64,000 nt of DNA from Raillietiella orientalis. Its lineage: Eukaryota. Location: NCBI GenBank assembly GCA_036172245.1, contig JAYWIR010000097.1:1-64000 (forward strand), given 5' to 3'. Position 1 is the stretch's first letter. Every line of letters starts with the position of its first letter. The notes under the pieces were generated by a model that ran no database searches, had not been told where the DNA came from, and worked only from the letters and a program-made list of their open reading frames with translations. Shown piece after piece: positions 17,439 through 41,507 of this stretch. Position numbers and translations under genes: made by a program.

Positions 17439-17534
17439 CTTTGAAAGTGACGTACCACAGAATGACTGCTGCCGCCGTGAGCAGCAGAGCCAGTCCAAGA
17501 ATGGTGAGGACGATTATGGTGAACGTATCCAACT
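17439..17534 (-). CDS. Transmembrane exon of the cysteine-module locus
   Basis: ttttactttccAG acceptor; reads ELDTFTIIVLTILGLALLLTAAAVILWYVTFK; donor GTTAGT after 17439 (alternative GTACGT after 17456). Confidence 0.75.
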
Positions 17535-20500
17535 CTGGAAAGTAAAAGCTCGTTTGAAATCTTCAGCAGTAAGCTTCTTCCGATGCGCGGCAAGAGCGAC
17601 AAGCTGCCTGAATATTCTAAAGCGCGCCTCCTTGGTATGTGCAAGACAGCTCTGAGCAGTTCGTGTTGCAATCGAGAAAAGGCACTTCCAGGCTGTTTTA
17701 CTTACTCCATTTCCTACTTTCGCACAACGACCCGTAATATTCCACAGGACAGGTGCAATTCACTTGATTCTGGAATTTGGCTTCACATTTGCCACCATTC
17801 ATGCATGGGCATTCTGAAGTGAAACGGAAAAAATGATTGCTTGCCGGTTCGTCAGCAAGTCGGACACACTGCTGAATGCTCGCAAAACTTGGCATCCATG
17901 ACTCTTGCATTCGTTCACGCTTTTCACGAAAGAAAAGTGGAAGGAGTTTCAAGCTCAATCAAACTTTCCCGCTGTTTATTCTTTGGGAACCCGTATTGAA
18001 ATGGCATCCAGGTTGCCTTCATGTGCGCGTTGTTACGGATGCAAGCAACAACAGCATTCGGTTATCTGCCATGGCGGGACTTACTGCACACAAGGAATCC
18101 TGTACTTTCATCCTGAAGGCAGTAATGTTGGCACTCTGACGTATTGCTGCATCCGCAGCCATCCGGGTAAGGCGCTCGATGACACTGAACTAGGAACGGG
18201 TGGCATTCAGTATTCCGAGATTCTCTCTCCAGATGAATGCAAGCTGCAGAGGAAATCCATTACCGCACTTCCTGAAGCCTGTCGTAAACGCCAGCAAGCA
18301 GGAACGGCTTGCGCACTGATCGTCCGTCGCGCAGGTACACCCGTCGGGGAGATGTGACCCCAAGCATAAACCTAATTCGGGTGAGCAACAAGTCAGCGCT
18401 TGCAAAATTATTGCAAACACATACTCGCACGAAAGACGGGCGTGGTGCACGGAGCCAATGAGACAAAGAAGCAACAGTTACAAAGTTTGGCATTAATCAT
18501 TTAATAACCCTTTTGATTATCACGTCGTTTGCTTTTGTAACTGCGACGAACTTTTGTACCAAACTTTTTGTATGCGTGTACTTATCGAAAGACCGTAAAC
18601 GGAGTGCACGCACCCCTTACAGGTCTGTCGGTTGGTTAGAGAGAGAAGGCAAACGGCACTCCATCCCATACCCTTACGCGCGTAACGGGAGTCGGAACGT
18701 TGAGCTTTGGTTCGAAATCCCGGAACGAAAAACGGGGAATCGTAAACATTATTCCACATCGATTGATGCACGAATTTATTCTCACGTACACAGTGATGTA
18801 TATTAACACGCGTTTTATAGACAGTAACATTATTTGAACGGATGTATATTTGTGAACGTTTATCTGCATGCATAGCAAGCCATTGATTCGATCATTGAAA
18901 AAGGTGTATATACCTGAAAAAAGTCGCAAAAGAATGGATACGCATATAAGTAGTTGAGAATGTGGATATTGGGAAAATTTGGGGTCTGACCAGGTTCACA
19001 TCGCGCAACTATACTCACTCGGATCACATAGTCCTTTGATGCAGTGATGAAAGCAATCTCCATCCTTGTCACAAGGACATCCTGTAGGTTTCGGGACGAC
19101 AGTGCAATCTTCTGCAAATTACTGATTATTGCAATTTATTCGTCGGTACCTTTCTCGTGAAAAAATGCAAACTCGTATGTGCAGCAACTTGCAAGATCTA
19201 ATCTTCATTTAGACAAGCGAATTGGATCCCCAGAGGAACTTTCGACATCCCCTTTTCACCATCATTCGGGATGAAGACTCTTTTTGTAGTAATTCAGAGT
19301 TTTGTACGAAATCTCCGCTGCACTCGCTCGCAAATAGCCGCCATTGGTCACTCTGATGAGTCGCACAAACGAAGCCACTTGATGATTATTGATTACTGGT
19401 TTAGGAAGAAACGAAAACTCAGTTTCCGGCAAGTGGAGTACGTGCAATCAGACGTTCGCTCTTGACTGACTCCTTTGCTTCAAAAGAGAAATTTTCCCTG
19501 CCATTTGATGATTTACGACATGGAATTATGGACACATTTAACCTTTCAGATGTTCGCATTCCTGTAGTTTCGTTTTCCACAAATCATTATTCTTGCAGTC
19601 ATTCATTCTTGATGGAATGATTGGAGTACGCATTTTTCCGAGGGAGGGACAGCTCGGAGTTGATCGAAGGGCGAACGCTCACGGTGCGAAGAGGGAAGGA
19701 TTTCAGTGTTGGCTTCAGACGAGCGAGGAAGAGCATTCAAGGAGGAACAGGTAAGACATTGGAAAGCGAAGCAGCAACACATTCAGCGAACATTTGCGAT
19801 TCCTGCTGAAATGCTTTTCTGGAGGAACAAATACGTAATGGTTTCAATCCACGATGATGGCAGCTGCAGTCTTTTCTGCTTCCGCAGACCTTTTTAAGCA
19901 AGCATTCAACTTCGCAAGTGCGGTATGTTCAATTTTCGTGGTTGCAAAAGTGCATTTCCGAAACTTCTGCCTTGTGGTTCTCCCCATTTGTTTGAACTGC
20001 AGCTCAAAAGATGGATTTGAATGCGGAATGCAACTCATAGATAGCTCCAGGCATTCCCTCCAAAGACTATCATCGCATATGCGCAACGTGTGCGGTGAAA
20101 GCAGATGATCGCAGAACAAACTGAAGACCCAATAAATTGGACACCCCTCCGCTACCATTGATGGCTCCTCCCACAATCCAATAACCAAGGACACTTCCAA
20201 TATCTTTCTAACACAACTCCATCTACACTCACCGTCTTCAACAAATAACCCTTAGCATACACCCTCGTTCCACGTACACCAAAGTAACGAGAAAAACATC
20301 CAGAAATTTCATCATGAGCGGCAATATGATCCATTACATTGCCATAATGGAATCCAGCCATCGATCCAAAATGCTCTCCTTGCGCAGCAGCCTTATACAA
20401 TATCATATTCCTATACGATACTTTCATTCCGAACTCCTCCGCCATATTTCCTATCGTCAATCCAAGAGACATGGGCTCCACCTTCGTCGCACATCCTTTG

Positions 20501-23500
20501 ATCTTCACATAAGGATAATAACGCGCACACTGTTCTAAATTTAATGTTCTCAACAAACTATTCATTTTTTCATAATCCTCAATATAAGCAAACATCCACG
20601 AACAATTCACATCGTCACAATTATCAACAGTCCTCAAAGACGCGTAATGAGCAGCACCAACCAAACCAGCCCTCTCATCGACAGTTTGCCAACGAGGATT
20701 TCTTTTCTTAACTTCACACGACGACGACGCCTATTCCAACGGCGACGACGCTTGAACGTATCATAACCATCGCGCAATGTGGTCAGTCGACGACGCTTCC
20801 AGCTCTTCGAACGACTCGACGCCTTCCTCTTTGGAGAAAGAAAACGACGTGCTGGTCGCCATTCGGTTTAGAGAAAGCCTACTGAGGATTTTTCGAACCC
20901 CCCTCCCTTCTTAACTCCGAGCTGGTGGGCGTGGCTCACCCGACTACACTAGCCTGCCACTAGGTCGGGTGAAACCAGACACTGCAGCTGGAAAGCTCAT
21001 CGCTTTTCCGCATTCCTCAGTCTTCCACGGCTGCGGATAAAAAAAAACCAGGCGCTCAAAATAAAAATGCTTACATAACAATTTCCCACGGTGTCGGATG
21101 ACCACTGGGCAATCTGGGTAATACTGACCAGATTGCGCTAACAAAAAATACTGCGCAGTTAGCCAGTACGTAAACCACCGACAACATCCACACCGCAGTG
21201 TTACCTCCAGTGGATTTCGCATGTGCCACCATGCCTTCAGCACTCAACTTCAATTGGCGCATCACTTTTTGCAACTACACAGAGCGAGAATTTAAAGAAA
21301 TGAAAGGATGGTGCTTCGCCTGCTTTGGACGCGAGACCGCTGAGAGCGGCACACCTCACTTGCAAGGCTCATACAACTCGAGGAGCCAAGGACTTTGCCC
21401 TGTTTGCACCGCAAACCATTCCATAAGACTCACTTGGAACGCGCAAAAGGCACGCTGCAGAGCAGCTTGAGGTACTGCAGTAAGGAAGATAAGAATCCTT
21501 GGACACACGGATCTCTCAACTCAATGAAACCACCGAACCAAAATCATACCAAGAACAGGTTCTTTACCATAAATAATTGACGATAAAATCAAATTCTTTG
21601 ATACTCCAACTCATCGAGAACGGAGCAGACGAGCTCTACATTTTGAAAAATCATACGCAGTTTTACTCGAAAAATGTAAACTTCCTAAAAGAGTGCTTTC
21701 GCCCATCAAGAACCAGGCAACACCCTAATCCCATGGCCAATCTTCAACTCAAACAGTAGCAAATGGACATCATGGACATCATTCGCCACAAACCCAATCC
21801 ACGAAAAATCCACTGGTATTACGACACCTGTGGCAACGCTGGCAAGACGACGATGGCGAAGTTTTTATTCTTGAAGAAGGACGCAATCTACAAGCACTCC
21901 TGCGTGAAAGCCGATGCTGTACAACGTAGAGCGAATCTTAGTGGTTGACTTTGCTAAGGATAACATGGAGCACGTACAGTACGACTTTATTGAATCACGA
22001 AAAAATGGAATCATCTTTGATTCCAAGTATCAAGCAAGTCTAAAATATTTTCAGCCACCTCATATTATTGTCTTTGCAAATTGGCAACCCGACTTTGCAA
22101 AACTATCAACAGATAGATGGATTGCCCAATAACCAAAGTCTCTCCGTAATATTTACCGTTTAGGATGCCCACAAATAGTGCTGCAGCAACGGAAGGTGCG
22201 AAGCCAAATGACAGAACAAGCTGTTTACGGGGTACGCAAAGATTCCTGCTTTTGCGGAAGGAGTTGCCTGTAGAGATGAGAACCGTGGCCAAAGACGAAC
22301 CGCAATGCGTGTCACGAAGTCACGCTGCACGCTGCACTCGAAACAGAAAGACATCGGTAATACGTGCGGCGTGCGCTTTCCAAGTCGGTTGAACTGGTCT
22401 GTGCACATCACTGTAGTTACTGGCCTTCGAACGGAGCCTCCAGGAAAGGGGCACTGCCTCCCAAATACGAACCCCAATTCTCGTTCAGGGAAACTCCGGA
22501 CGAGACAAACACTGAATCATGAAATCATTCTTCCCCTTCATGTGGTCAAGCAACAAGGAAAGGAAGGGCATGGGCCAGAGGCAGCGAACGGAACTAACCA
22601 ACCTCGCTCCTTGAAATTTAAGAGGGAAAGCGGAGGGATCGAAACGGGAATGATCACGTGCATGCAAAATGCAAATGGAAGCAGTAAAAGTTACGAAAAA
22701 GTTACGACGCCTTCAGCTTTAATGTCGAACTGAAAGCAAAGCGCACTCCTGAATTTTTGGAAAAGGGAAGAGGGAGAACAATTTGCGTTCAAGTAATGCA
22801 CTGACAAAAACGGTTCTGTGGAATCTCTTCATTTCACCTCAGCTGAACTGATTTGGCCGTTAGCTGTGCCAAACTTACCGCAAGTTCCCGTTATTCTGTT
22901 ACACTTCATCCATCCCAGACACTGAACATCCGTGGAGCACGGGCATCCCTCTGCTAGAAACCCGGACAAGGACTCCCCGATTACAAGGCAATACTCTGAA
23001 AGGTAAAGCAGTGCATTCATAAACTTTCCTCTGAAAACCCGTGTTCGTGGGGGGGGGGGGGGAGAGAGAGAAAGAATTTCTTCTTCTTCGGCGGTGAAGC
23101 GGTGCTCAGTACAACGAATGAATGAGCGTCATCATCCTACCTGCACAACTCAAGCCTTTTGCCGACTCACTCGGAACGCATTTCCCGGAGAAGCACTCAT
23201 CCGATGTTCTGCAAGGACAACCGCTCGGCCGCCACCTTTGTTTGGAACAGCCGGAGTCTGGAATGAGCTATCAAAGAACGTTGTTTACTTGAACTCTTAA
23301 AGTCGGGAAGAAAAATGAGGGAACAAGCGCGGTGTACATGTTTTTTTTTAATTTTTTTTGTTTTTTGAGGGGGGCAGGGGGGATGCAGGGCAATGGGGAA
23401 GTGGCTCGAATACATACAGCAACTTCTCTTCCAGAGTTAAAAGCTTTTTTCCCACACTAACAGAGGTCGCCCAAAAGGATGAATATCAGAAATAGGAAGA

Positions 23501-26500
23501 GGGGGAAGAAAAGAGTGCGGGAGCCCTCACGATACCTGTGCACCGGCGCCTCCTGCAATGGTGTTTGCAGTGCGCATTGGAAGTACACGGACAGCCAGGA
23601 AGTCGGGGGGCAGCAACACAATTCACTGGAATGAAAAGAAAGGAATGTGCACCGCTTGAGCCGAGCGACTGCTCTGTGTTTGCAAAAGTGGTAAAGAATG
23701 AAAAGTGCGTACCGCATACTTTTTTATCCTGCTGTCTGCCGCATACGTTATCTTTGCAGTCTTTCGGAGAGTTGCACGCACAGAAGGGCGATTTGAGGGG
23801 CACATTGCACTGTGGATCTGCAACATCGCATTTGGGTTAATCAGCCACTATCGCACAATCACGAGGTCATTTTTTTTACGACATGTACTCAAGCAACAAG
23901 GAGATAAAGGGCATTGTCTAGGGCAGGCAACGGAATCAATCAATCAGTTATACAAGCCACGCTCCTTGAAATTGAAGAAGGAATGCAGAGGGATCGAAAC
24001 GGGAAGCATTTCCGGGAGGAGAATTCTGCGGGGAGTTCGTGAAAGAAGCGGCAGTGCTCCTGAAAACTTCCAGGACAGCGCAGTTCGTTCTCACGAGGAA
24101 ATGCTTCCGAGTGTTCCGCACGCTGACACCAACGGACTGCACGGCAGACACCCTGTTGTGCACTACTCACAGCACGTTCCGAACGCCGATTTCGGTTCAG
24201 GTTTCACGCAGGACTCGGAAGCACACTGCATATCCGATACACAGGAGCAGCCGGCCTCTTTTCTTCTTGAACACTTGTCTACGATACAGGGTGAGCATTA
24301 TGAATTGAGGACAACGTTCGGAAAGCGCAGTTTCGAAGATTTTTGGCTACCCGCGCAACGCACCTTTGCCACCGCAACTCAGAAACCCGGTTGCCGCGTC
24401 TCTCTCGCAGATGTTGAAGCATTCTTCTGGAAAGGAACATGCGCAACCGTCCGGATAGGGCGGAGCACAACCTGAAGAGCCCCCCTCGTCACCACGAAAC
24501 ACCTCCCGGGATCAAGTCCTACCGCATGCTTTCCCGCTGCAAAACTTTTCTTCGCACTCGTCGTGTTGCGTGCAGGGACATCCGGGAGGTCTGGTGTGTT
24601 GCTGGCAAATTCCTAAACAGGACAACAGGATTTCGAATCTCCGATCAAAACAAGAATAAGGAAATGCAAAGCATGGAACGCAACCAAGTCGTGTACAACC
24701 TCCATCGCAGATGTATCCTCTTGTATGGATTATGCAAACAAGGCACTCGGGATTGCAAGGACAACCACCGCCTCGGGGACACACTGAACACAGCAACAGT
24801 TTTCGAGAACACGTGAATACTCATTCAGTACCAGAGCACTTCTTGATCTCGTCAACGATTGCAAGGCAATCTTTGCCTCCGCAACCTTTCGGGCTGTCGC
24901 AGGGGCAGCCTTCAACGTTCCCACGAGAACACGCCCCTTCAAAACCTGAATGCACACTTTCTGGAAGGAACCCATCACGAGGAAGGAACTTTTCATACCG
25001 CATGTCTCGTTCAAGCATAACGACTTCAGACAGTGACTGGGGTGCGCACACCTACACGTGGGCGGTTTCACGGCTATCGCAGCACACGCGTCTACGATGG
25101 AAAAGGAAGAAGGCAAGTGTGTGAATCGACAAGTCCCGAACCGGTGTACTACTGACTGTCATCCACAGAGCAGAAGTTGTGGGAGCACTCCAAACTCTGG
25201 CAGGAGTCAGGACTGGTGCACGGACAGTAGGGGCTAAGAGGTGGTTTCTTGCAGTTTCCTACAATTAGAGTCTAAGCTCGGTATCCACGTCATTTCGTCG
25301 TCACGTTTGGGGGGGGGGGGCAAAAGCCGGAAAAGGGGGACGGTTAAGTTGAACCGGTTTCCCTTGGTAAGTGCCAGCAAAGTTCTTAAACTGACCACAG
25401 TCGGAATGGAACGGAGGTTTTCGAACGCAAATGGCTTCTTACCGCAGTAGCTGAAACCTTTGGAAGTCACGCATTCATGCTGACATGGCTTGTTTTTGTT
25501 GTTGCAAGGACATCCGGGAGCTCCGATGAACTTGCAGAGAGTGTCTAAAAGACAAACGATTCGGGAATGTGTGATTTCCCTTCTACTAAAGTGCACATGC
25601 GTTTCAGGTCCAAAAAACTACAATGCCAAGCATGAATCTCGCATTTTGCGCGCTTCGAATCCACGGCTTAAGAAGGCATGCGATTTTGCAAGCAAGAAGC
25701 CCTTCGTTGAGGACGCATTCGTTCAAGAAGCCTCCTTTCTTGTCTTCGTTAAAGGTGAATGAGATGAATGTGGAATTTTCCTCTACCTGGAGTGCACTTC
25801 AGTTCGCTTAGATTGCATACTCCTTCACACTGACGAGAGTTACTGCAAGAGCAACCAGGCATGAAAGCATATCTGCAGCTTCCTGAATCGGATGTAAGCA
25901 AACGTGGAGAGAGCAAGGAAAACTTACGGCAGTAACATTTGCTGCAAATGCTTTCTCCGTGGCAGTCAGCATTGTCCTTGCAATTGCACTCTGACTTGCC
26001 ACACTTATCGGAAGCCGTAACTGTTGACGAGATGATTCATTAAAAAAAAAAAAAAACAGATACTCATTGTGGATTGCTGACACTTTCGAGGCTAGCATTT
26101 CACACTAGAGTTTTCTAATCACCACGAAACTCACTATCGGATGTGAATCGAACGGTGAGTTTTTCAAGAGTCGCGCTCAGATTGGTGGCTTTCCTCACCA
26201 CGTTCGAAACAGCAAGCATTTCTTGGTGTTTCTCAACAAGGAGTCCGAGTGGGAATTGGAAAGTTGAAGAAGCCAAGACAAAGTCGCAGTAAACGATTGG
26301 TTGGAAAAAGCGATGTTTTGGAAATTCCAGTCACTTACCGCATTTCGCTTTGAAGCAGACTCCACAAGCGCATTGCGAATGCTCAATGCAGTCGCATTCC
26401 GGGGGAAATGGAGGATTTGGAGGGCATATCAAGCGACCTAGAATACATTTTCTTTTCTACTGGATGCATACTCAGGAACTCTGGCAAGATATTGAGTGCG

Positions 26501-29500: not shown

Positions 29501-32500
29501 AGTTTCAAGATCGAGCACTTCCTTACGGTGAAGGAATAAGTTGCTACTCACTGCAGAATCCGTTGTAACACACTCTGCTTGCGCAAACTGCGGGTGATTT
29601 GCAATTGCAGAGAGATAAAAGCGGAGTTTGTTCGCAATCTGGAACTGAGAAACAAAATTATTTATGGGGTAGCTGTTTCAATGCTTTCACTTTTTACATC
29701 ATGACGTTAACACCGTTTACACACTTCTACCCTGGCTTTTAAGAGTAGTATGGTTACAAATATGGAAGAATTAGTATAAAAAAAAAGAAATAGGAAATCT
29801 TTCACCAATATAATGTGGTAGATGGATTTGAAAGCCTTACCACAAACTTTATCTTCGCATATTAGATTTCCACTGCATTCGGATGATGAGCTGCATGGGC
29901 ACCCTCTGTATTTATTCAGTTTCGTACACCAAGCTGAAATTCCTTACTAACATAAGCTCATCGTTATCTAAAAACTACCTTCTCATCAGATTATTACGTA
30001 AATCTCCTTTCATCTCATGAATTCATGAGATAAAAGTGCCAACTTACAAAGATGTACTATATGATGATCAGTTCTGAGAAAAAGGATAGAACGAGGTACG
30101 CATTCAAAGCTTCATGCACGGAACAGTCTTAAAGGAGTGAAAAGTCCAAACTTTTCTCTTGTATGACAAGGGAGGAAAATCCGAAACACAGCTCGTTCTT
30201 CTCAATCCCTTTCCCAAATCAAAAAGGAAGAAGGAAACGAAGACCATCCCAGTGAGGAAACACAGTAGTACAGGTGCTGCAATTGTGAACTCTTAGTTAC
30301 TTTTGTACGCAACAAACTAGACATTGAAGAATGGAAAGTTTTGTGGTTGTGAAGCAAACACCACCGGCAACCACTGTACCCAGGCAACCGGCGACACAGA
30401 ACAGCCCGTGCTCTAGTCTGGCAATGGGCAAACGGAAGACTGTCAAAAGCAGTCCGCGAACGAATTTGCGAAACAGCGTAAACGAACAAATTGGTACCTT
30501 TCTTAGCCGTCTCAAGGTTTAAACGAAATGCTGGTTCCTTCTCAGGGGTCAACCCATCTGCATGCCAACCTAAACTCAAGGGCAGGAGACAACGCAACCA
30601 TCGCATGGTAACTCCCTGCGGTGCCTTTCGAAAAGCGCGCTTCATAGCACGGTGTACAGAACTCGAGCAAATCTTCCAGCGACCAGTTGGCATCTTGAAG
30701 ATATTCGATGAGAACGCTCCCGTTCAGGAGCCCTGAAGCAACGACTCGAGGATACGAAACCAGGATCGCATCACAGGAAACGAAGAAGCGAGACAGACGT
30801 TTCGAAAGACGGAGATATCAAGAATTCTTTAAATCAAGCTGTTTGTTTTTAGCGTTGCTCCTTTGTATTGCCCATTAAGAAGCTTTTGTGGCTGCATCGA
30901 AAACGATGAACGCAGCTGCAATCAAGAGGATAGCCCTATCTCCGTGCAGATGAATTTAGGGTCACTTCACAGGAAAGTTCACGACCATCCTAATACGAAT
31001 GAGGCAATTCGAGAAAAGAAAAAGGTGGTTTTCGCTCCTTAGTGGAAAACGGTAGCTTAAAGAAAAGCAAATGTATAGAAAGTGAATAATTAAAAGAATT
31101 AATCAACGCCCGAACACATACTGACCGCATTTGCGTTTTTTGCATTCTCCGTTTCGGCATGCAGCATTTGAGGAACAGTCGCATCCCGGGGATTTCAGTG
31201 CAGAGCCGCAATCTGGGACTATAAAAACACACACATCTAGCCGTGTCATCGTGTCGGTCATCGAAACTTTTGCGACAGAAAGCAGATCGTACAATGGAGA
31301 GCAGGAAAATAATGCATTTTCAAGATATCAAGCCAAGAAATTTTGAATTAGTTTTGCTTGCATCCTGAAACGCAGGAAATTCGTTTCATTGTGAATTCTG
31401 TGTTTACCACTATTCTCGGAGCAGATGCATTGGATTGCTTATTAAGTAGGGAAAACGTTAAGTGAAAAAACACGCCATGCAGAAAAAGGACATGAGGCCA
31501 TACCGCAAACATGCGTATTGGAATCACAGGTGAATGGGTGCCTGCAGTCTCCAGGCAGAAAGCAGTCACAGTTCGCATCTCGACCCCTTCCAGAACAAGT
31601 GGCTGAAATGACAAGGGTTTCTTTGGTTCCTTTTGAACTCGGTTTTGCTTCACGAAATTCCCGCTTTTGCATGGAAGAGGACAGTTCGAGAAAAAAAACT
31701 GAAAATCGCTTCGGGATTCTGTGGAATTCTTGATCACATTAATAAACTTTCCAAGAGATGGCAACAAGTAGGAAGACTTTTGAGCTTACTGCATTTTCCA
31801 TCCTTGCACATGTGAGACGAGCAATCTTTTGGAGACGAGCAGGGACAAGAGGGCGCACCATGCCATGGGAGGGAGGGGCATTTTTCTTCCAGATACACTG
31901 AAAATGAATAAAGGCGGAATGATTACTGTCCATACTTGCACTTGAATACTTTTGTGTGATTTGAATAGGAGCGACTGTACTCAATAAGAATGCAAAAACG
32001 ATCAAGAGCGCACTTCCTTTCGTACCCTCGAAGTTTCATTCCAAATAACTTCTAAGTCTTTTTTTTTCACTCCAAACACTGAAATCATGCTTCTCGAGTC
32101 AGACTTTGGAAAGATTTGGCGTGTGGTAATCGAAAACAAGGTGTTTTCGAAGACTGGACGAGAACGTTTCCGCCAGAATGAGGGCCACGTAAGCATCATT
32201 TTATAAGCATCCATCGTCAGTTTTTAACGTTTTAACGTCATCGAATGCTTGGCATGAGTGACTTTAAATTTTAGACTTTAAATTTTAACGTCAGTGCTCA
32301 CGGGATCAACACCATTAAATGGATTGTAAGAGCATGGCCAGCATGAATTCGTCATTCCTTCTGTTTCGGGAATAACCAAAAGAAACCGAACAACGCACTT
32401 TCAATGATTTTGCCTTTGTAGCCGTTTTTGTTTCATCTTCATCCACTTCCAGAAAAGCCTGTCACGTGTGCTCTAAAACTAATGGCGGACTGGAATCAAA

Positions 32501-35500
32501 CTGACTTCTTACAGTTCTTGTATTCTTCTGCTTCATGTCGGATGGGTTTCAAATGTGTTACGAATGCCTTGTGATTTACAATCGGTCCTTAGCTCCAGTA
32601 GTCAGGAAATGGCAGCATTGAAAATGATATCCTGATTGCTGATGGTTCGTGAATGACCTTCGGAAAACAAGCCAGCAACCAATTTGCGTAAGTTTCCTCT
32701 TACAATTGCAACAGAAACGGGAAATTTATTTTCAACTATAAATTCAGTTTTGAAGTTTTAAAAATCACGGAATAGCTTCCGGATTGTTTTGTCTTAAACA
32801 TCTTGCCTATTAGAAGGATGCGTAAATCTGCACAAATAACAGTTTGCTCCCATATCTAATTGTTCAAAAAGCAATTAGGTAAGGATTCAGTTAGAAAGTG
32901 AGACAAACAATTATCTGTGCAACGTTGCCGGCGTTTAAAGAAATGGAAAAACAAATGCTGACGTAGGAGGAATCCCTAGTTTGTTGAAACAGGATTCTGC
33001 AGTTTCGTTTCGGAAATCGATGTTTGCTCTTCGGTTAGTGAAAATTTTCAAAAACGTTGAACCTCTTTCATGCTGCCTTTCAAGAGACAATAGGAAAGAG
33101 GCATCCGTTCTTTTTGCATTTCTAGCGGAGAGTCAATGTTAGGGAAGCGAACCCGAGAGAAGATCCGTGTCGGTTCTGTTTCTTTCCACCGCATATTCAT
33201 CAGAAATGCACCGGTAGCTTTTGTTTGACAGAAATTTTCCTTTTATTCAGCGGTGTTTACACTGCTCACAAAACGAATGATCCAAATTCGTTGAACTTTT
33301 GGTCCGAGAGAAGCATCCCTCTCCTCATAAGAGGTGCAGCAATGAAATCATAGCATCTTCGGGACGAACGGGTTGCCCCTGTATATATTCAGTTTTCTAT
33401 TTGCTTATGGACCGATGTAACACTTCCTTCTCGATGTATCAGCGAATGCAGTATCTTTTACCGAATCGCATACATGAAAGTGACCGTTTAATCTACAGCA
33501 CCAAAACCATAAATGTTGTTTCTCTTTTGTAAGGATGTTTGTCCCTGAAGTGCATTCCTTCTCAGATCCATACTCCGCTGCTCCCGATCTCAATTCCGAG
33601 CATGTGACCCATGCAGCTCTAAAAATGACTTTCCAATACTTTCCCCCGAATCGAGAGTGCAAAGAGCGAGTTGCTAAGTGATGGATCACAGTTTCCAATT
33701 GATTGGAAACAAGTGTAATCGAAAGTGGTGCTACGCTCGTGTCGGCGTTTGCGTTGTCTCGAATGCCTTCCTTGAAAGTCCGTACTTACTGCATAATTTT
33801 TCCTTGCATTCCAATCCCGAGACGCATTTTTTTCCATTGCAGGGGCAGTACACCGACGCCGACGATTTTTCGCACTGCGGCCGAGTTTCTAAGATTAGAA
33901 AATTGTGTTTTGGTTTCCTTTTGGGGAGACTTTTTCTATTCTTTCCATTCAAACGACTATAGATAATGCATTGGAAGTAACAGGAGTCTAGTTACTCTAC
34001 TTTTGAATTGAATTTACACTCCAAAGCACCCATGTTGAAAAGAAGCAGTATGGACACGTTATTGCAATATAGGTTACTGTTTCGACTAACCACAAAATCC
34101 TGAAGAACATGCGAGATGTCTTGCACAATCCATGTTGGACAAACAAGGGCAACCTTCGACACCTAAAAACCGGCTACAAGTCTCTGGAAAAAAAATAGTT
34201 CGTGACATTTTCATGCAGTCGTTTCCGAATCAGATTTTTCGAAATGCTTTTGTCTGAGGATATTTCGAGGAATGCGAACAAAGGAAAACGGGAAGAAAAA
34301 ATCAACTTTTCCCATCGCGGACGTTTGAGGCATTCTTCGCTATTGCGAATGCACCAACACGTCACAGAAACTCCTGCTTTCAAGTTTTGAGCGTAGGAAA
34401 TCAAATAACACGGAAAGCAAGGGATGAGCTCAATGATGTGCAAGCGGCAAATGGGTCCTTCCTTTGCCACTGTTCCATAGGATCGTCAATAGGATCACAT
34501 GTGCACTTTCAGGTTTCAGTAGACCTACGGAGGCATCTCTCGCAACGGGAATCTTGTTTTTTGTGCCCAACTCATTTCATTCAAAGAGATCATTCGAAAA
34601 GAGAACACGCATACTGCGTACGTTTATCTCGTGTGGAAAAATACGTCGGAAACGTATAGTAAACGTATGCTTCGCCATCATGGTGTACTTACGGCACAGT
34701 CCGCTTTCACAGGTTAAACTGTCGCATTCCTCGTTGGATTGGCAGCTGCAACCAACAGGTTTGATGGTTTGGCTGCAATCAGGAACTAAAACACACAAGC
34801 CACAGATGTGAATCACGGAAGAATTGTCGCTTCTCAGGGCTCTCCGCGCGCAGTAGTGGCTGAAGAATTTCCACGAAAATGGCGTTCAGATTACTTCAGG
34901 ATAGCTTGCAGAGAGACTCGAGAAGCAAAAAGAAATACAAGGGAGTTTCAGAGATCGTGAGAATCGGAACTCGTCGCCATCCTCAACTGGAGCACTCCAA
35001 CTCGAAAATCGTCTTCTGCACATGTGACTGCAAAACTTCGGACGAAAGAAAAAATCTTCTTCCCCCATGCTGATCGCGTTTCTATCTTTATAGTTTCACC
35101 TGTCTTTCACATGGATGAAAGGTGACTCTCTCACTGCACCGTCACGCGTGTGTGCCTTTATCGTCGAAGCCGTTGCCGCGAATCTCAAGTGTTGTTAATT
35201 TTTAGATCCTGGGATGAAACGATTGCATATTCCAACAGCGACTTGCAAATCGATTCGAACGGATGCATGCAACTTGGATTTCTTCCGGTCGCATTTGTGG
35301 TCGCAATGTGCCCGCGGCGCTCCTCGAACGCGGAAAGCCAGAGTAGCTGAATTCTTCAAACTTCGTTACGTCTTCTTTTCAAAAATCAGTATTTGGGGAA
35401 AATGGAGAATGTGCGCCCATTTCCAGTAGCAAAAGCTTGAAGTTGTTTACGCGAAAAAGAAATTACGAAAAATTGCAAACAAGTATCGAATCGAATGCAA

Positions 35501-38500
35501 CAGTTCGTTTTGTGCAGTCACCATTTCTCGTCATGGTGATCGCTGACTTGGTTTCTGCAACTCTATCCCAAGTGATCCTATTCGGCTTAGTCTTCCCTCC
35601 TTTTCCTTCTTTCATCACGGTGCTTCTCGAAAAATAGACTTCAATTTAACATCTTTGTCTAAAAGAGAACATCGCTTGCCTCCACTCTCCTGGAAGATCA
35701 TTCGAAAAATTCATCCTTTCTGGGAATGCTGAAACTTTCGGTATTGTGTCGGAAATCGAATTCTTCCTTTTGAGTCAGATCCTCAGTCTCGACCATCGGT
35801 TTTCTACTTCTGCAGTACATGACTTTCTGCGAAAAAAACTCTGAAGGAGCTTTTCAGACATCGTAGTTGGAACTCCATTAACAAGGATAAAGTCCAAGAA
35901 GAGATCTGAAAATCCACAATGGTATTCCGATTACACTGATTCCTTTCACCTCCTTTTGGTTCATTAAGCTCAAATGCCAGACCTCGTTTTTGAAGCACTC
36001 TGGAAACCGTTTGATTTGATCTTTCTTCATAAAAGTGCAGTATTTTTTATGCAGAATTCCTTCACCATTTGCCTCTTTTAGTCTCCTCTTTTGGGATGGA
36101 TAGGCTCGGTGGTTGGGTTTCGTGGAAGGAGCACTATTTTGATATTATTTCGCTGCTGGATTTCGGAGAAACGTTGCAAGAAATGCAGCCAAGTGGGCAC
36201 ACGCAGATTTCTCTTACTCATTTTGCGTATCAACGAAAGCAATTTCTTTCCGATCAGTGCTGTTTGGAGTTCGGTTTTGCCTGTTAATATTAAAGCAAAA
36301 GAGTTTCAATTTCTTCCCATGTTTGTATTTCAGCACTGTGAACTTTTGCTGCTTTTGCCTGAATTCAAAGGGTTCTTGATAATTAAAGACAATTAGTTAT
36401 TCGTTGCTATCTCCCAGTTTGCTCCACGGACTTTTTCTCTAATTCTTCAATAATCGTTAGGTTAGCACTGCTTGTTTCCTCCCACGAAATGCCTAAATCT
36501 TGCGCTTTCTCTGAAGCTGTATTTTCAATGCTGATGAGTTTCAGACCTCTGTTTCAGAAAAGACTTTTGATTTATAAAGTGCTTTTTCAACAGCAATATT
36601 GAGAGGGATGCGAACATTGTAGAAACAGCGAATCCATAATCCAAGAATTCCATATTTCTGAAAACAGGAGCGTCTCTACTCGTTGCTGAATATTTCCGCC
36701 GATGCCCACTTGTTGGGCGCGTTGCCTATTTGATATTTCTCTCGTATAAATGTTTCGTAGCGTCATTCGTCATCTTCTCGTGTTGGACCCGACTGGAATC
36801 GAAGTGTACTTTTCTCTTGGATGGAGAGCTATTGATTTCCTTTCCGTGGCATAGCGGCGGAGGAGGAGAGGGATTCCACACAAATCGGGAGCGTGGCCGA
36901 AGTGTCGCACCGCTCTTAAGAAGGATCGGCTCATCAATGCTCGATTTCTTCACCCCATTTTCTTCACCCCCGTTGAAGTTGAATTTCACCGCATGAAACC
37001 CATTCCACTCGGCAAAACTGTAAAGCTGCACTCTCGCAGAGAATTGACACGACAAAACCTCTTCCAGGATTCGTGTAGATGCATTGCATTCCGATTTTCG
37101 AAAATTCACAAATACATGGAGGTCTTCAAAGAAGCGGACATTCAACTGATGACCGCAGTTTCCCTTCTCACGTGTTCCAATGGGAGAGAAACAACGAAAC
37201 AAAAAAGACTCGATTTGCCATCACTCGCAGTTTGTCTTTTTAAAAGAGTTCCGCCTTCTCAATGGATTTACTTCATTCTCCATCACATTGAGGAACTGAA
37301 ATCGAACTGCTGTTCTCGTTTTCACTTTAATGAATGAATTTTGTTCTTTCTTTCTATTCTTAAAGAAAGTAAACAAGCACCTGATGAATCAATTTAGAGA
37401 ATGAAATCGTGTACTAAAGGACGAAAACCATCTACACACGAAAGTCACATTGGGAAGCCTAATTTACTGTACTCGCGAACATAGAAGCCAAGTATTGAAA
37501 ATAAGCTAAGTGGTCACACGTGGAATACGCTATTTACCGCATTTGGAGGTACTTTCATCTTCAGAGCATCTATACCGAGGTGCACAAGGACAAGGGCAGT
37601 TGGTCTTCCCCAATCCAGGAATGCAGACATCTGTAACACATGAGAACACCAATCCTCATTTCCTTACATACCAGCTGACTTTAATTTCTGAACATTTCAA
37701 ATTAAACAAGCAAGTGGTTGCCCGTTGAGAAAAAGAAAGGGAAAAAAACGTGCACGATTTGTTTTGCTATGCAACTCAAACGTACTGAGATTCAGACGGA
37801 GAACTACTAACACGTATTCGTTACCAGAAGAAAAAAAAAAGGAAGAAAAATCTTAAAGGAATATAAAGAGCAAGCACTAGAAGTATGCAAAACCTTTGCT
37901 TACACTGAACACATTCTGGAAAAATTTCTGTGCTTGGAAGAGTCGAAAATCGGTTTAGAAATAGGCAGATGCTCCCGAATCAGTCATTGTCAGTAACAAA
38001 TGCAAAATACAGTAATGTTCCATCATGAAGCGTCATTTTTAAGACAAAGTAAAACTGTATTCACTGCAATATAACAGCATCCAAACAAAAAGGCGGAATC
38101 CTGCATTGCGTAGCAAGACGAAAGTAAAGGAATAAGAAAACTCACCGCATTTTCTTGCCGAACACGAGTCGATGTCACAGTCCCCAGGAGCCCAGCAGGG
38201 ACAAGACGGTTTCAACGGTTTGGCATTGCAAATGACCTCTGGTAAAAATACAGATGAAATTTCATGAAAAACAAGATACGTTAAAAAGATATGTCCAGAG
38301 AGCATCTTCTTCCAAAAATGGCAAGAAAATGCAAGTTTCGCGCAGACTTATCGTGACTTACCGCACTCTCCCTTCGAACAGCCATGGTGTAGATCGCAGT
38401 CCAAATCAGTAGCGCATTTCTTTGCTGCTTCTGGAATAACACACACTCAATAAAACACTGAGCTTTCCCAATGAGGCGGAAACGAGCTTAGCAGCGGATC

Positions 38501-41500
38501 ATTTTGAGATTACAGATCTGTTCTAAATATCGTGTTCGTGAACTGCCATAATTGTGGATGGCAGGAATCGCAGTCAACTATGTTGCCAAGATTAATAAAT
38601 ATCTCACGGTGGCAATACTGATAGTAATACTGATAGGACACCTCCTCTAACTATTCGAAACGTCCTATGGATTCTGCACCGAAAACCGATAAGCTTCACC
38701 ATTCGAGTTGCCTTTCTTGTTGCTTACGTAATTTTATTCAGAAACCACAAAATCCACTGATACCCAGGCCGACAGGTACAGCTTCGAATCCTTGCATTTA
38801 TATAGATTATCAAATAGAAAGAGCTGTAATAAAGATGGGGATTCAGCGCAACTTTTTTCCAACGCCCTGCAGCTTCGTCTACGAAGTAGAGAAAACTCGT
38901 CACTACCACGAATCTTCATGACTGATGATTGCGAACTTTCAGCAAACAGTGCACTTTGACAAAAGGCACTCTGAATGACAGTCAGTCAAACCTGTTTCGC
39001 AAGTTTTCATTTGCATCTGTCACTCCGCAACGCTACATCAGATTAAAGGAACATATGAATCTCGAAAGTCTGCTCAACAAATTCATTGGCTTTCCATATA
39101 GGATATTTACCTTTGATGTACATTTTTCAACATGGGAGTGCAGTCACAATAAACAAGCGAGACGGACTGTTACATCGGAAATTCAGCAAATTGAAAACTT
39201 TCACGCAAATTGACGAAATTGCCACCAAGTTTCACAATATCTTCATCCGTGCCGAATGGTTACCAGACGTATCCTATAATCGTTTATACAATCAAGAAAA
39301 TAGGATGAATGGCGCTTGAAAAAGACATTTCAGATGTTTTTCTCGGCTTACGTACTCGTCTGCTGAAATTCCCAGTTAAGCACTTTTTGAGTTCTAGAGT
39401 AACAAAAAAATTTTCCCCATAAATCTACAGAAATTGTTTCGTTAAACCATTATGGGGCCAATAGCTAAGAATCGGTCCTTTGCCTATGAGATTACTATCA
39501 GTACTATTCCGCTTTTTAGCGCTCGTTCGGAATAGAAGATGCTTACTGAAGTGAAAAGTAAGCTCCTCTTTTTTCTTTTCTTTCATGGCAGAGTAAGAAG
39601 ATATTCATACGTCATAGTTGTTTTTCGTGAGTACTTACCACATGTCAGTTCTTTGCAGGTTTTACTTTCACACCAAGCAGCTGTTTTGCATGGACAACCA
39701 GGGTACCGGGGCAGTCTTTCGCAATTCAGTTCTATAATCAAAGGGCGTTTCTCAAATAGATCTTAAGCATGTAACTCATTTTCGTTTCAAAAGAAATGAA
39801 TACAGTTCGTGAATTCTTGAATCACCTTACCACAAGTTCCACCCTTACACGAGAATGCATGAGCACATTCCTTAAGAGACCCACATGGGCAGCCCACTGG
39901 TTTGGAAGTAGCGGAGCAGTCAACTAGGACACAGGAAAGAAACATTACGATTCTTGTTTCGGTGCTAATTAACAGCCTCTTTAGTTCGATGTTCTGAAAT
40001 CCTAGAGTTTTAGAGAGAGCGTACAGTCTTAGTGATACAGTGATAACGCTTTATGACAGATTTTTCCGCAACGTGCTTGATTCCATCCCACAAAAGGCAT
40101 GACAGTTAACGTTCCATTTCCAGCATGTTCCATCTTCCGAGCAGCGTAATTCTCGTAAAGTGTTCGTGCAAAATAAAAGATTCGTCAGCACCTTCAACAC
40201 TTCCACATCGCCTAGCAAAACGCTGGCGCTATGTGCAAGCTGCTTGATTAAAATAGGGAAGCCGTAAGAAACTCTAGAAGCTCTTCGTAAAAAGAGAACC
40301 ATGGGACGGGATTCTCAAATCGAAATCACTCTATTCGCAACTGAAGAACGGGAAAGAGAATCTACAATTTGATGACATACACCTCAAAGATTCGAGTTGG
40401 TTGGAACATTTTCTAAAATGCAGCAAAGGGCACACGCATTTCTCACCCCTATCAAGGAACTCGGAGCCATTTGTTTAAGTTGCGGGAATGCCAACTGTTT
40501 TTCCTGAACGCCATGTTTCCGTATACAAAAGTTTTCATACGTAATTCAGAATGTCTGTGAAAACGTCGTTGAATAGAAATGCTCTCCACGACACACGTGT
40601 TTTGTGTTGCTCTCTCCGTCTTCAATGACAATTTGCTAGTTGGGTCAGTTATCAGAACTCTTGGAAAAATAAACTTCCCGTAGCACAATGGGTAGGAGCT
40701 GTTTCAGGAGGACTTTTAGGCTTCGTTGTGCATCAGTTTCCTGTTATGCATATTAGCAGTGTAATGACAGTCGTTCCGTAGGCATTTCCCGTATGCTGAG
40801 GAAAATTAGTAGCGAAAATAAGTTCTTTAGGAATCTGCTTAAAGAACTCTTCATGAAGAACTTGGGCAGGATAATCGAATTGCTGCAAACATAGAGGAAG
40901 TCGAAAATGTTTTCTCCGCCTTACGAAGCCACCAAGGAAGAAAAAATCTACACTCGAGTGCACACAACCATCTTTGACGGTTTCGTGGCAACGATACAGG
41001 ATAAATAGACATTAGGAATTCTTTTGCACTTTTGATGGAAAGGATAGCCCCCCCCCCCCATTGTGCTCCTTGAAAGGGCTCTTCATTTTGTGAAAAATTC
41101 AAAATGCCAGTTGTGACAATGAAATAAACTTACTACAAAATTTATTGAAGCAAATTCCACTCATGCATTTGTCACCAGACAGGCAAGTGCATCCTTCAGG
41201 CCGCTTATCACTGGGACAATTTAAATCTTTCAGACATTTGGCAAGTTCTTAGTAAACGACTTACTGCAGGTATTATTCAAGCACTTGTATGGAAACACAC
41301 ACGTTGCATTCTGAAAGCAGGGACATCTGTATTTTCCTGAATCTTCCTTGCAAATTTCTTTGGTTGAAAGAAAAATCAGGAAAGATGGTGATTGGTTGCT
41401 GAGAATGCATTTACCGCATATTCCGCGTCTGCATTCCAAACCATCGATACACCCGATATCTGTTGAACATGGACACTTGTACGCAACCTTCCTAGATGCT

Positions 41501-41507
41501 GTGCATC
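17439..41507 (-). CDS. Multi-exon locus (one giant gene or a tandem family) encoding at least 38 cysteine modules + EGF + transmembrane segment; predicted cysteine-rich type I membrane or secreted protein
   Basis: 38 manually translated minus-strand exons, each bounded by AG/GT, all phase 1-1 and multiples of 3 (69-117 nt; 18 are exactly 93 nt). Each has the pattern C-x~8-C-x-C-x~5-C-x3-5-C-x4-9-C; two have only 4 Cys. They are followed by an EGF exon and a TM exon. No convincing start or signal-peptide exon was found. Confidence 0.8.
17718..17813 (-). CDS. EGF-like domain exon
   Basis: tttcacttcAG acceptor, GTAGGA donor, 96 nt, phase 1-1. Reads ECPCMNGGKCEAKFQNQVNCTCPVEYYGSLCE with the canonical CxNGGxC...CxCxxxYxGxxCE pattern. 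Confidence 0.85.
18085..19111 (-). CDS. Cysteine-module exons, membrane-proximal cluster (3 exons)
   Basis: 19019-19111 EDCTVVPKPTGCPCDKDGDCFHHCIKGLCDP; 18264-18371 GLCLGSHLPDGCTCATDDQCASRSCLLAFTTGFRKCG; 18085-18189 VQCHRAPYPDGCGCSNTSECQHYCLQDESTGFLVCS. Confidence 0.85.
20110..20862 (-). pseudogene. cap: Putative CRESS virus capsid gene, frameshifted
   Basis: ATG at 20862. One frame off it is an Arg/Lys-rich arm, RPARRFLSPKRKASSRSKSWKRRRLTTLRDGYDTFKRRRRWNRRRRRVK. A frameshift near 20710 leads into KKRNPRWQTVDERAG + ORF 20152-20664 (…YYPYVKIKGCATKVEP…RYFGVR…WKCPWLLD). A possible further frameshifted tail VSNLLGLQFV reaches ~20110. It lies opposite rep. Confidence 0.75.
21109..21136 (-). promoter_or_regulatory. 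Rolling-circle replication origin stem-loop (nonanucleotide CAGTATTAC)
   Basis: Minus strand reads GCAATCTGG-TCAGTATTAC-CCAGATTGC: a perfect 9-bp stem (21109-21117/21128-21136) with an NANTATTAC-type motif in the loop. Confidence 0.92.
21231..22132 (+). pseudogene. rep: CRESS virus replication-associated protein (HUH endonuclease + SF3 helicase), disrupted
   Basis: gccaccATG at 21231. Motif I WRITFCNY, motif II TPHLQG, motif III YCSKE, LKQ*Q (LxxWQ with W to stop at 21757-9), Walker A RKIHWYYDTCGNAGKT, Walker B ILVVDF, KNGIIFDSKY, motif C HIIVFAN, LSTDRW. About 3 frameshifts plus 1 stop. Confidence 0.95.
22879..23817 (-). CDS. Cysteine-module exons (4)
   Basis: 23713-23817 DPQCNVPLKSPFCACNSPKDCKDNVCGRQQDKKVCG; 23536-23625 VNCVAAPRLPGCPCTSNAHCKHHCRRRRCT; 23141-23257 DSGCSKQRWRPSGCPCRTSDECFSGKCVPSESAKGLSCA; 22879-22995 EYCLVIGESLSGFLAEGCPCSTDVQCLGWMKCNRITGTCG. 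Confidence 0.85.
24171..25544 (-). CDS. Cysteine-module exons, dense cluster (8)
   Basis: 25443-25544 DTLCKFIGAPGCPCNNKNKPCQHECVTSKGFSYCG; 25157-25258 GNCKKPPLSPYCPCTSPDSCQSLECSHNFCSVDD; 24999-25091 DACAAIAVKPPTCRCAHPSHCLKSLCLNETCG; 24832-24945 GFEGACSRGNVEGCPCDSPKGCGGKDCLAIVDEIKKCS; 24700-24783 VCPRGGGCPCNPECLVCIIHTRGYICDG; 24523-24612 GICQQHTRPPGCPCTQHDECEEKFCSGKACG; 24364-24471 GCAPPYPDGCACSFPEECFNICERDAATGFLSCGGK; 24171-24278 DKCSRRKEAGCSCVSDMQCASESCVKPEPKSAFGTC. Confidence 0.87.
25787..28396 (-). CDS. Cysteine-module exons (8)
   Basis: 28304-28396 APCSKEIGETNCACAAPEDCQGRCDAITATCS; 27839-27931 VNYCTTGKHLQKGGTCPRGHSCVRTGTKGICG (4 Cys); 27250-27354 VKCVYPAPQYCPCSVPSSCVGKLICRYHDDYSGICG; 27103-27195 DDACTSTLAFPHCPCKSSFQCASGTCIQETCG; 26899-26991 DICRGGNRKEYCQCEKHGDCEKSLRCVEGICS; 26339-26437 GRLICPPNPPFPPECDCIEHSQCACGVCFKAKCG; 25928-26020 VTASDKCGKSECNCKDNADCHGESICSKCYCR; 25787-25882 GSCRYAFMPGCSCSNSRQCEGVCNLSELKCTP. 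Confidence 0.87.
29552..31897 (-). CDS. Cysteine-module exons (5)
   Basis: 31790-31897 VYLEEKCPSLPWHGAPSCPCSSPKDCSSHMCKDGKCS; 31504-31602 ATCSGRGRDANCDCFLPGDCRHPFTCDSNTHVCG; 31126-31218 VPDCGSALKSPGCDCSSNAACRNGECKKRKCG; 29841-29933 AWCTKLNKYRGCPCSSSSECSGNLICEDKVCG; 29552-29644 VPDCEQTPLLSLCNCKSPAVCASRVCYNGFCS. Confidence 0.87.
33790..34785 (-). CDS. Cysteine-module exons (2)
   Basis: 34693-34785 VPDCSQTIKPVGCSCQSNEECDSLTCESGLCR; 33790-33888 ETRPQCEKSSASVYCPCNGKKCVSGLECKEKLCS; both have GTAAGT donors. Confidence 0.85.
37538..39923 (-). CDS. Cysteine-module exons (5)
   Basis: 39831-39923 VDCSATSKPVGCPCGSLKECAHAFSCKGGTCG; 39639-39731 ELNCERLPRYPGCPCKTAAWCESKTCKELTCG; 38362-38430 EAAKKCATDLDCDLHHGCSKGECG (4 Cys); 38146-38238 EVICNAKPLKPSCPCWAPGDCDIDSCSARKCG; 37538-37630 DVCIPGLGKTNCPCPCAPRYRCSEDESTSKCG. 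Confidence 0.87.
41134..41507 (-). CDS. Cysteine-module exons, most 5' cluster (3)
   Basis: 41415-41507 GCTASRKVAYKCPCSTDIGCIDGLECRRGICG; 41265-41357 EICKEDSGKYRCPCFQNATCVFPYKCLNNTCS; 41134-41226 DLNCPSDKRPEGCTCLSGDKCMSGICFNKFCS; all are 93 nt. Confidence 0.87.

Follow-up and report, generated by a model that had tools for sequence, protein, structure and literature searches.

A 39-exon array of cysteine-rich modules in Raillietiella orientalis probably encodes a knottin-like rod on an EGF-transmembrane anchor

We analysed a 64,000-nucleotide stretch of Raillietiella orientalis DNA (the window; contig JAYWIR010000097.1 of assembly GCA_036172245.1, positions 1 to 64,000 of the forward strand), whose minus strand carries a run of small cysteine-rich exons between 41507 and 17439. 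The reading that we favour, and consider rather probable, is that these exons belong to one large spliced gene for a single-pass type I surface protein, whose ectodomain would be a rod strung from some 39 knottin-like beads. If expressed as modelled, such a gene would contain an unusually long array (~39 copies), whose small six-cysteine module has no name in any curated family library. A long beads-on-a-string membrane protein had been one of two possibilities raised by an earlier, sequence-only reading of the window, and it fits all of the sequence evidence presented here: an open frame across 41 exons, linkers of 1-6 residues, and an EGF-like domain followed by a hydrophobic span.

A phase 1-1 exon array on the minus strand

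The window consists of eukaryotic DNA of 35-56% GC and contains 0 N. When a six-cysteine regular expression (C-x6-10-C-x-C-x4-7-C-x2-6-C-x3-6-C) was applied to the reading frames of both strands, 26 matches were obtained on the minus strand and none on the plus strand. Likewise, a profile derived from an alignment of 35 modules (A1) gave 34 minus-strand and 0 plus-strand matches at E<0.01. Our gene model runs along the minus strand from 41507 to 18085 through 39 module exons, and then through an EGF-like exon (17813-17706) and a transmembrane exon (17534-17439). The sequence-only reading had counted at least 38 module exons on this strand across 24 kb, and the model bears this out, with none on the plus strand.

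All 41 modelled exons are preceded by AG and followed by GT, and the length of every one of them is a multiple of 3. Module exons measure 69-117 nt, 19 of the 39 being 93 nt long. Joined in order, the 41 exons amount to 3,987 nt (1,328 codons) with 0 stops and an even number of cysteines (238). At the module borders, a pyrimidine-rich AG acceptor lies a few codons ahead of the first cysteine, and a GT(a/g)agt-type donor is found usually one base past the last cysteine codon (32/39 module exons end at exactly that base). Because the exons of the model had been picked in phase 1-1, a separate, phase-blind test was run on the 34 profile modules with generic consensus sites. Of the 22 modules with a strict consensus donor, 20 had the nearest one in phase 1, and of the 21 with a strict consensus acceptor, 20 had the nearest one in the matching phase 1-1 register. 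The claim that the modules are always phase 1-1 and a multiple of 3 is therefore supported without being assumed, and module borders appear to coincide with phase-1 introns.

A further scan looked for phase 1-1 segments that are open and bounded by splice sites, using splice-site matrices trained on the array itself; the minus strand yielded 41 candidates and the plus strand 3. Two 93-nt module exons that the cysteine pattern had missed (37630-37538 and 27931-27839) were recovered in this way, and three weak profile matches (38430-38362, 26020-25928 and 24783-24700) proved on direct reading to be real-looking exons. Linkers between modules, counted from the last cysteine to the first cysteine of the next module, comprise 1-6 residues, and the junction codons listed (E, V, D, G, among others) are not followed by a dibasic processing site. 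Two introns, 27196-27249 (54 nt) and 41358-41414 (57 nt), are in frame and stop-free, such that their retention would keep the reading frame; retention of the 54-nt intron would add two cysteines. The splicing described here is read from the sequence alone.

Conserved cysteines and divergent loops

The A1 consensus is x-C-x7-G-C-P-C-x5-C-x4-C-x4-C, in which the cysteines alone are invariant or nearly so. Six cysteines are present in 35 of the 39 module exons, four in two and seven in the remaining two. The sequence-only reading had described the cysteine frame as fixed at C-x8-C-x-C-x5-C-x3-5-C-x4-C. This was an overstatement, since the exact frame fits only 16/39 module exons; a looser one (x7-10, x1, x4-6, x3-5, x4-11) fits 32/39. 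G-C-P-C occurs in 12 module exons and C-P-C in 21, and the motif PYPDGCxC was found in exons 24471-24373 and 18189-18085. Two 93-nt subtypes could be distinguished: type A has one residue ahead of the first cysteine, an x5 fourth loop and the spacing 8-1-5-5-4, and type B has two residues ahead of the first cysteine, an x4 fourth loop and the spacing 8-1-5-4-4. The only two 7-Cys modules (26339-26437 and 25928-26020) are encoded by neighbouring exons, an arrangement that suggests an inter-module disulfide and joint use of both modules.

Outside the cysteines, amino-acid identity between modules of equal length was 13-16%, compared to 6.6-7.1% after shuffling, in keeping with the statement that almost all other residues differ between copies. 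Identity at the third codon position was 26-33%, against a random expectation of 25%. Self-BLAST of the 26-kb region detected no DNA similarity between any two units; a single pair of intronic repeats and a small palindrome were all that it returned. Because the units lack DNA similarity and their third positions are near random, we regard the copies as ancient, and on this sequence evidence they are old duplicates with saturated synonymous sites. Such saturation means that the divergence needs no special mechanism or diversifying selection, and rapid diversification is not shown. What the sequence-only reading termed hyper-divergent reflects the age of the copies.

In the three A-to-B neighbour pairs the intron is always short (38, 99 and 196 nt), and the introns after type B exons measure 509-1,210 nt in 6/7 cases, four of them about 1.2 kb. 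Short A-B introns together with long introns after B suggest duplication of two-module units, and the recurrence of the subtypes in the 5' half likewise suggests that the array grew partly by duplication of A-B units. The upstream part of the array has ~40% GC and introns of 1-3 kb, and the 3' cluster (26020-22879) has ~50% GC, introns of 45-353 nt and modules with long last loops. The two copies of the dispersed intronic repeat (22539-22650 and 23882-24005), in separate introns of the gene, are 74% identical across 125 bp, and long plus-strand open reading frames (ORFs) traverse both; the repeat is possibly an unclassified mobile element.

A low-depth DNA run (X1), apparently from the same organism, provided short contigs exactly matching the window but yielded no splice information; it also contained one variant contig (depth 3 of 6.5). 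This contig differs at four single bases within 19 bp (26924-26942) of exon 26991-26899; two of the changes are silent and two are replacing (G to E, E to K), and the cysteines are kept. The only other X1 difference listed in the 20 kb compared was at 33649, in an intron, coverage being patchy (23/30 bins with any depth). This variant contig, a single observation, could be an allele or a paralogue.

An EGF-like domain and a hydrophobic span close the array

The sequence-only reading had the array lead into one EGF-transmembrane end, and the 3' exons agree with it. Exon 17813-17706 matched Pfam family PF00008 (E 1.5e-4) with 22.4 bits, above the gathering cut-off of 21.5, and its six cysteines are EGF-spaced. 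The next exon (17534-17439), read directly from the sequence, encodes a hydrophobic run of ~25 residues. Reading through this exon unspliced gives a TAG one codon further on, and a weak gttagt donor lies at the exon end. With the span at the C-terminal end of the chain, the product would have a single-pass type I topology.

An unnamed module with a knottin-like predicted fold

Pfam scanning of the 35 modules taken singly produced no family match; the best E value was 0.0096 (Cyclotide), and each listed family was matched by one module only. EB, Dickkopf_N and DUF7107 all stayed below the gathering score: EB had E 0.047 in 1/35 modules, Dickkopf_N had no match, and for DUF7107 a single ORF spanning two modules gave E 0.031. 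The NCBIfam scan of the modules gave no match, the PDB sequence search with the module profile gave 0 matches at E<=10, and Rfam and tRNA scans of the window gave no match. A full-text search of one literature library returned nothing on DUF7107 and nothing relevant on comparable cysteine-rich, phase 1-1 or tandem-knottin membrane proteins. The impression that the module is not a named family stood, with no match in Pfam or NCBIfam.

We then considered the fold. AlphaFold2, supplied with the 35-row alignment, modelled a single module as a small knottin-like fold with a mean pLDDT of 92.4. The nearest solved structure was the knottin U3-scytotoxin-Sth1a (5fzv; Z 3.8, rmsd 1.4 A over 27/30 residues), and Foldseek gave TM scores of 0.67 to 5fzv, 0.74 to its relative 5fzw and 0.63 to colipase; all of these fold matches are statistically weak (E >=1.1, Z <=3.8). 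Because of this weakness we term the predicted fold knottin-like, and only weakly so, without placing the module in a knottin family.

To find distant relatives, we searched 1.84 billion representative proteins with the profile and obtained 29 weak matches at E<=0.001, the best of 68.5 bits. A protein with many such modules would score far higher, so that neither the array product nor a close relative of it has been predicted from any genome in the collection. A word-based search of proteins of 73-2000 aa with the module alignment gave no match. In most of the 29 distant matches only the C-terminal half of the module took part in the alignment (profile positions 12-29, C-x5-C-x4-5-C-x4-C). At E<=0.01, DUF7107 was present in 12 of these proteins, EB in 10 and Dickkopf_N in 9, and 7 had no Pfam family. 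The full six-cysteine spacing, C-x7-10-C-x-C-x5-C-x3-5-C-x4-10-C, was found in 23 repeats from seven of the 29 (P0003, P0009, P0013, P0014, P0022, P0025 and P0026), often as P-D-G-C-x-C or PYPDGCxC, like exons 24471 and 18189 of the window. Bacterial-type partner domains accompany the repeats in P0009 (FecR and bacterial TSP3) and P0013 (PKD and dockerin). Profile-profile comparison of the window modules with the 23 database repeats gave a probability of 96.9%, a partly circular figure, as the repeats had been chosen with the same profile. The module appears, then, to be unnamed in the curated families, yet not unique to this locus. It may represent an undescribed domain family common to bacteria and eukaryotes, of which the array gene would be the largest known array.

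Interpretation of the array

Exon anatomy, open frame, EGF-like domain and hydrophobic span are read off the DNA; from them we infer splicing, constitutive inclusion, fold, topology and function of the product as follows. The ectodomain would be a rod of ~39 tandem three-disulfide mini-domains of ~30 residues with a knottin-like fold, each encoded by one phase 1-1 exon and joined to its neighbour by a few residues. C-terminal to the rod there would be one EGF-like domain, a membrane span, and then either a very short tail or a tail exon not found. Old tandem duplications of exons, in part of two modules (A-B) at a time, would have enlarged the array, and its copies would have diverged to saturation save for the cysteines and the G-C-P-C core. 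All exons would most likely be included, like those of EGF or LDL-A arrays in other mosaic proteins, and the product could serve as an extracellular stalk that is stiff and resists proteases, or as a multivalent binding surface (matrix, coat or adhesion). The one open frame, the one anchor, the very short linkers and the adjacent 7-Cys modules fit a single constitutively spliced gene.

Several observations weigh against this reading. Scans of 41508-64000 provided nothing convincing as a Met-plus-hydrophobic first exon or signal peptide, and no convincing upstream exon for 41507; the signal-peptide exon may lie outside the window. A module-like exon at 42761-42636, tried as the 5' neighbour, ends in T and creates a TGA when joined to 41507, and no exon candidate bridging 42636 to 41507 was found. 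Within the array, some exons have weak splice sites, several introns are merely 38-57 nt long, two of them in frame, and two module exons are degenerate, with four cysteines; the splice-site matrices, as said, had been trained on the array. As for the fold, 2/5 models were poor (pLDDT ~56), and the structural matches are weak. Finally, no predicted protein resembling the array product was present in two large protein collections, which means that no annotator has called this gene.

The sequence-only reading had also entertained a cassette library, in which symmetric module exons are skipped or chosen variably to give many surface isoforms with different binding loops. We consider this unlikely. 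It is true that any subset of module exons would stay in frame, all being multiples of 3 in phase 1-1, that 35/39 carry an even, self-contained set of six cysteines, that loop residues are nearly free to vary, that some acceptors and donors are weak, and that the X1 variant contig has its four differences, two of them replacing, within 19 bp of one module exon. However, symmetric phase 1-1 exons are the standard encoding of constitutively included extracellular modules in animal mosaic proteins, and so this symmetry is no sign of skipping. Nor did the array introns share 9-12-mers above a shuffled control, so that no selector or docking candidate emerged from this test, which is crude and blind to degenerate or structured elements. 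Moreover, units without DNA similarity and with saturated synonymous sites do not need diversifying selection, the two 7-Cys exons adjoin each other, and exon 24278-24171 ends in T, which would produce a stop with any exon starting AA, AG or GA. The cassette-library idea therefore has no positive support in the sequence, and its Dscam-like form strikes us as distinctly unlikely: a somatic isoform generator in which the choice among the 39 modules would vary from cell to cell or stage to stage, to yield a combinatorial set of disulfide-stabilised binding loops on one EGF-transmembrane anchor for host or environment recognition. A further view is that of a silent or decaying relic, the full protein no longer being expressed, for instance after loss of 5' exons, and its integrity being residual. 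The missing signal-peptide or start exon in 41508-64000, the stop that arises where the upstream module-like exon would join the array, the two 4-Cys exons, one exon with a poor donor, the virus-like insert and retroelements within and beside the gene, and the absence of a matching predicted protein from the large collections searched would all agree with such decay. Yet 41 consecutive exons are open and AG/GT-bordered with conserved cysteines despite saturated synonymous sites; unconstrained sequence would have gained stops, a random 93-nt frame being open about a fifth of the time by a rough estimate, and we judge the relic improbable.

The changes in GC content and intron size along the array, and the different module subtypes of its two halves, might be taken to mean several adjacent genes, for example a wide-spaced 5' half and a dense, GC-richer 3' cluster as separate transcription units. 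This is very unlikely: inside the array we saw neither a start nor a signal peptide, and neither a stop nor a terminal exon; all exons are phase 1-1, and there is a single EGF-transmembrane end. The least probable alternative is a polyprotein precursor whose cleavage between modules frees many knottin-like peptides (toxins or antimicrobials). Although the predicted fold is closest to venom knottins and the copies are many and in tandem, the linkers of 1-6 residues have no dibasic residues among the listed junction codons, and an EGF-like domain with a membrane span at the chain end is unlike the layout of a secreted precursor. As matters stand, the array gene is best regarded as coding for an ordinary type of mosaic surface protein whose module is unfamiliar.

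Relation to known repeat proteins

Among mosaic proteins, the EGF arrays of fibrillin and Notch, the class A arrays of the LDL receptor and the EGF-DPY arrays of Drosophila Dumpy resemble the modelled protein in having one disulfide-rich module per phase-1 exon, tens of copies, very short linkers, C-terminal anchorage and old duplication. They differ in that the module of the window is not EGF, LDL-A or DPY, an EGF-like domain being its last extracellular unit only. DUF7107 (PF23416), Dickkopf_N (PF04706) and EB (PF01683) may be distantly akin to the module through its C-terminal half-motif, whereas its N-terminal C-x8-C-x-C lies outside the matches of those families. The seven six-cysteine database proteins (P0003 and the others) have the same spacing, but they contain 1-10 repeats instead of 39 and no EGF-transmembrane end. 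Dscam1 exon clusters and schistosome micro-exon genes also possess runs of symmetric exons that can be combined without frameshift. In contrast to Dscam1 clusters, the array has no conserved intronic element in the 9-12-mer test, and its exons are unlike at the DNA level. In schistosome-type micro-exon genes most of the coding sequence is in symmetric exons of ~6-36 nt; the module exons of the window, at 69-117 nt (19/39 of them 93 nt), are not of this kind.

In an inhibitor cystine knot, disulfides connect cysteines I-IV, II-V and III-VI, and one bond threads the ring. Knottins such as spider U3-scytotoxin-Sth1a resemble the window module in packing six cysteines into ~30 residues; they differ in being single secreted toxins with another cysteine spacing, and the match is weak (E 1.1). 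The U3-scytotoxin-Sth1a peptides are described as having an inhibitor cystine knot (PMC4881942).

Provided that expression follows the model, the module, which occurs in bacterial-looking proteins as well, is a candidate for a new domain family, and knottin-like beads on an EGF-transmembrane anchor are a candidate new architecture. Rods of this sort are of interest because they could serve as stable scaffolds and because they may be part of the surface or matrix of an organism that is poorly annotated. The explicit exon map makes combinatorial exon use directly testable.

Exons of the gene model in order

The exons are described in transcript order; all are on the minus strand, and the module exons measure 93 nt unless another length is given. 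Exon 1 (41415-41507; 6 Cys) begins in phase 1 and requires a partner exon ahead of it. It is followed by exon 2 (41265-41357), with the type A spacing 8-1-5-5-4, and by exon 3 (41134-41226), with the type B spacing 8-1-5-4-4, a 38-nt intron ahead of it and a weak acceptor. Exons 4 (39831-39923) and 5 (39639-39731) are again type A and type B, the latter being row 1 of A1 and the module used for folding. Exon 6 (38362-38430; 69 nt) encodes a half-module of four cysteines, C-x5-C-x5-C-x4-C. Exon 7 (38146-38238) is type B, and exon 8 (37538-37630), from the splice-site scan, has six cysteines in a variant spacing. Exon 9 (34693-34785) is type B and exon 10 (34091-34183) type A; then come exons 11 (33790-33888; 99 nt), 12 (31790-31897; 108 nt) and 13 (31504-31602; 99 nt). 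Exons 14 (31126-31218) and 16 (29552-29644) are type B and flank the type A exon 15 (29841-29933).

After exon 17 (28304-28396), the degenerate exon 18 (27839-27931), with four cysteines and also from the splice-site scan, is of uncertain inclusion. Exon 19 (27250-27354; 105 nt) precedes the open, in-frame 54-nt intron. Exon 20 (27103-27195) is type B with a weak acceptor, and exon 21 (26899-26991), type A, is the one from which the X1 variant contig differs at four sites. The 7-Cys modules are exons 22 (26339-26437; 99 nt) and 23 (25928-26020), the second with a short first loop. The dense part of the array continues with exons 24 (25787-25882; 96 nt), 25 (25443-25544; 102 nt, last loop long), 26 (25157-25258; 102 nt), 27 (24999-25091) and 28 (24832-24945; 114 nt). 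Exon 29 (24700-24783; 84 nt) is a variant with six cysteines, a weak gttgta donor and uncertain inclusion. Exon 30 (24523-24612; 90 nt) is followed by exon 31 (24373-24471; 99 nt), which has PYPDGCxC and a long last loop, by exon 32 (24171-24278; 108 nt), whose last base is T, and by exons 33 (23713-23817; 105 nt) and 34 (23536-23625; 90 nt). Exon 35 (23141-23257) was modelled with 117 nt and six cysteines; it would shrink to 87 nt and five cysteines if the donor at 23171, which looks stronger, were used. Exon 36 (22879-22995; 117 nt) ends at the 3,767-nt intron with the virus-like insert, beyond which lie exons 37 (19019-19111), 38 (18264-18371; 108 nt, last loop long) and 39 (18085-18189; 105 nt, PYPDGCxC, last loop long). 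The phase 1-1 EGF-like exon with the PF00008 match (17706-17813; 108 nt) and the transmembrane exon with its ~25 hydrophobic residues (17439-17534; 96 nt) complete the model.

Sequences upstream of the array

The doubtful module-like exon (42636-42761, minus strand) measures 126 nt, encodes seven cysteines and had a profile E of 0.18. Weak signal-peptide candidates were noted at 58304 and 44217. The first of these (~58176-58304, minus strand) comprises a Met, a hydrophobic stretch and a phase-0 donor; lying 17 kb away from the array, it is the only signal-peptide-like candidate upstream. On the minus strand (47500-47833), two exons with phase-1 borders make up a unit with an Ig-type look (a ...LFCTV... 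strand, then ...LYLRISG...DLSNKTYYCKVENDQGY...), and neither piece matched Pfam. It was rejected as a direct upstream partner because its last base is a T that makes a stop with either next exon, 42761 or 41507. Also on the minus strand, a 147-aa open frame lies in AT-rich DNA at 53252-53692; the protein search gave no homologue for it and Pfam nothing above threshold, and it might be an exon of the array gene or of a neighbouring gene.

Virus-like and retroelement sequences

A circovirus-like (CRESS-DNA virus) insert is present at 20155-22132, in the 3,767-nt intron that separates exons 22879 and 19111, with Rep-like pieces on the plus strand (~21174-22132) and Cap-like ORFs on the minus strand (20155-20867). 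The Rep-like N-terminal ORF matched Pfam Viral_Rep weakly (E 0.062) and the solved Rep endonuclease domain 7kii with E 0.0028. Walker-type motifs are present in frame-shifted downstream Rep-like pieces, the frames being broken into several pieces, and on the strand opposite Rep an arginine-rich ORF is followed by a 192-aa ORF. Downstream of the 3' end of the gene, the plus strand contains several fragments of non-LTR (long terminal repeat) retroelements between 781 and 15177. Pfam RVT_1 matches were obtained for the ORFs at 10512-11606 (E 1.2e-24) and 13375-14010 (E 2.7e-13), whose C-terminal parts have, by eye only, the look of a putative restriction-enzyme-like nuclease.

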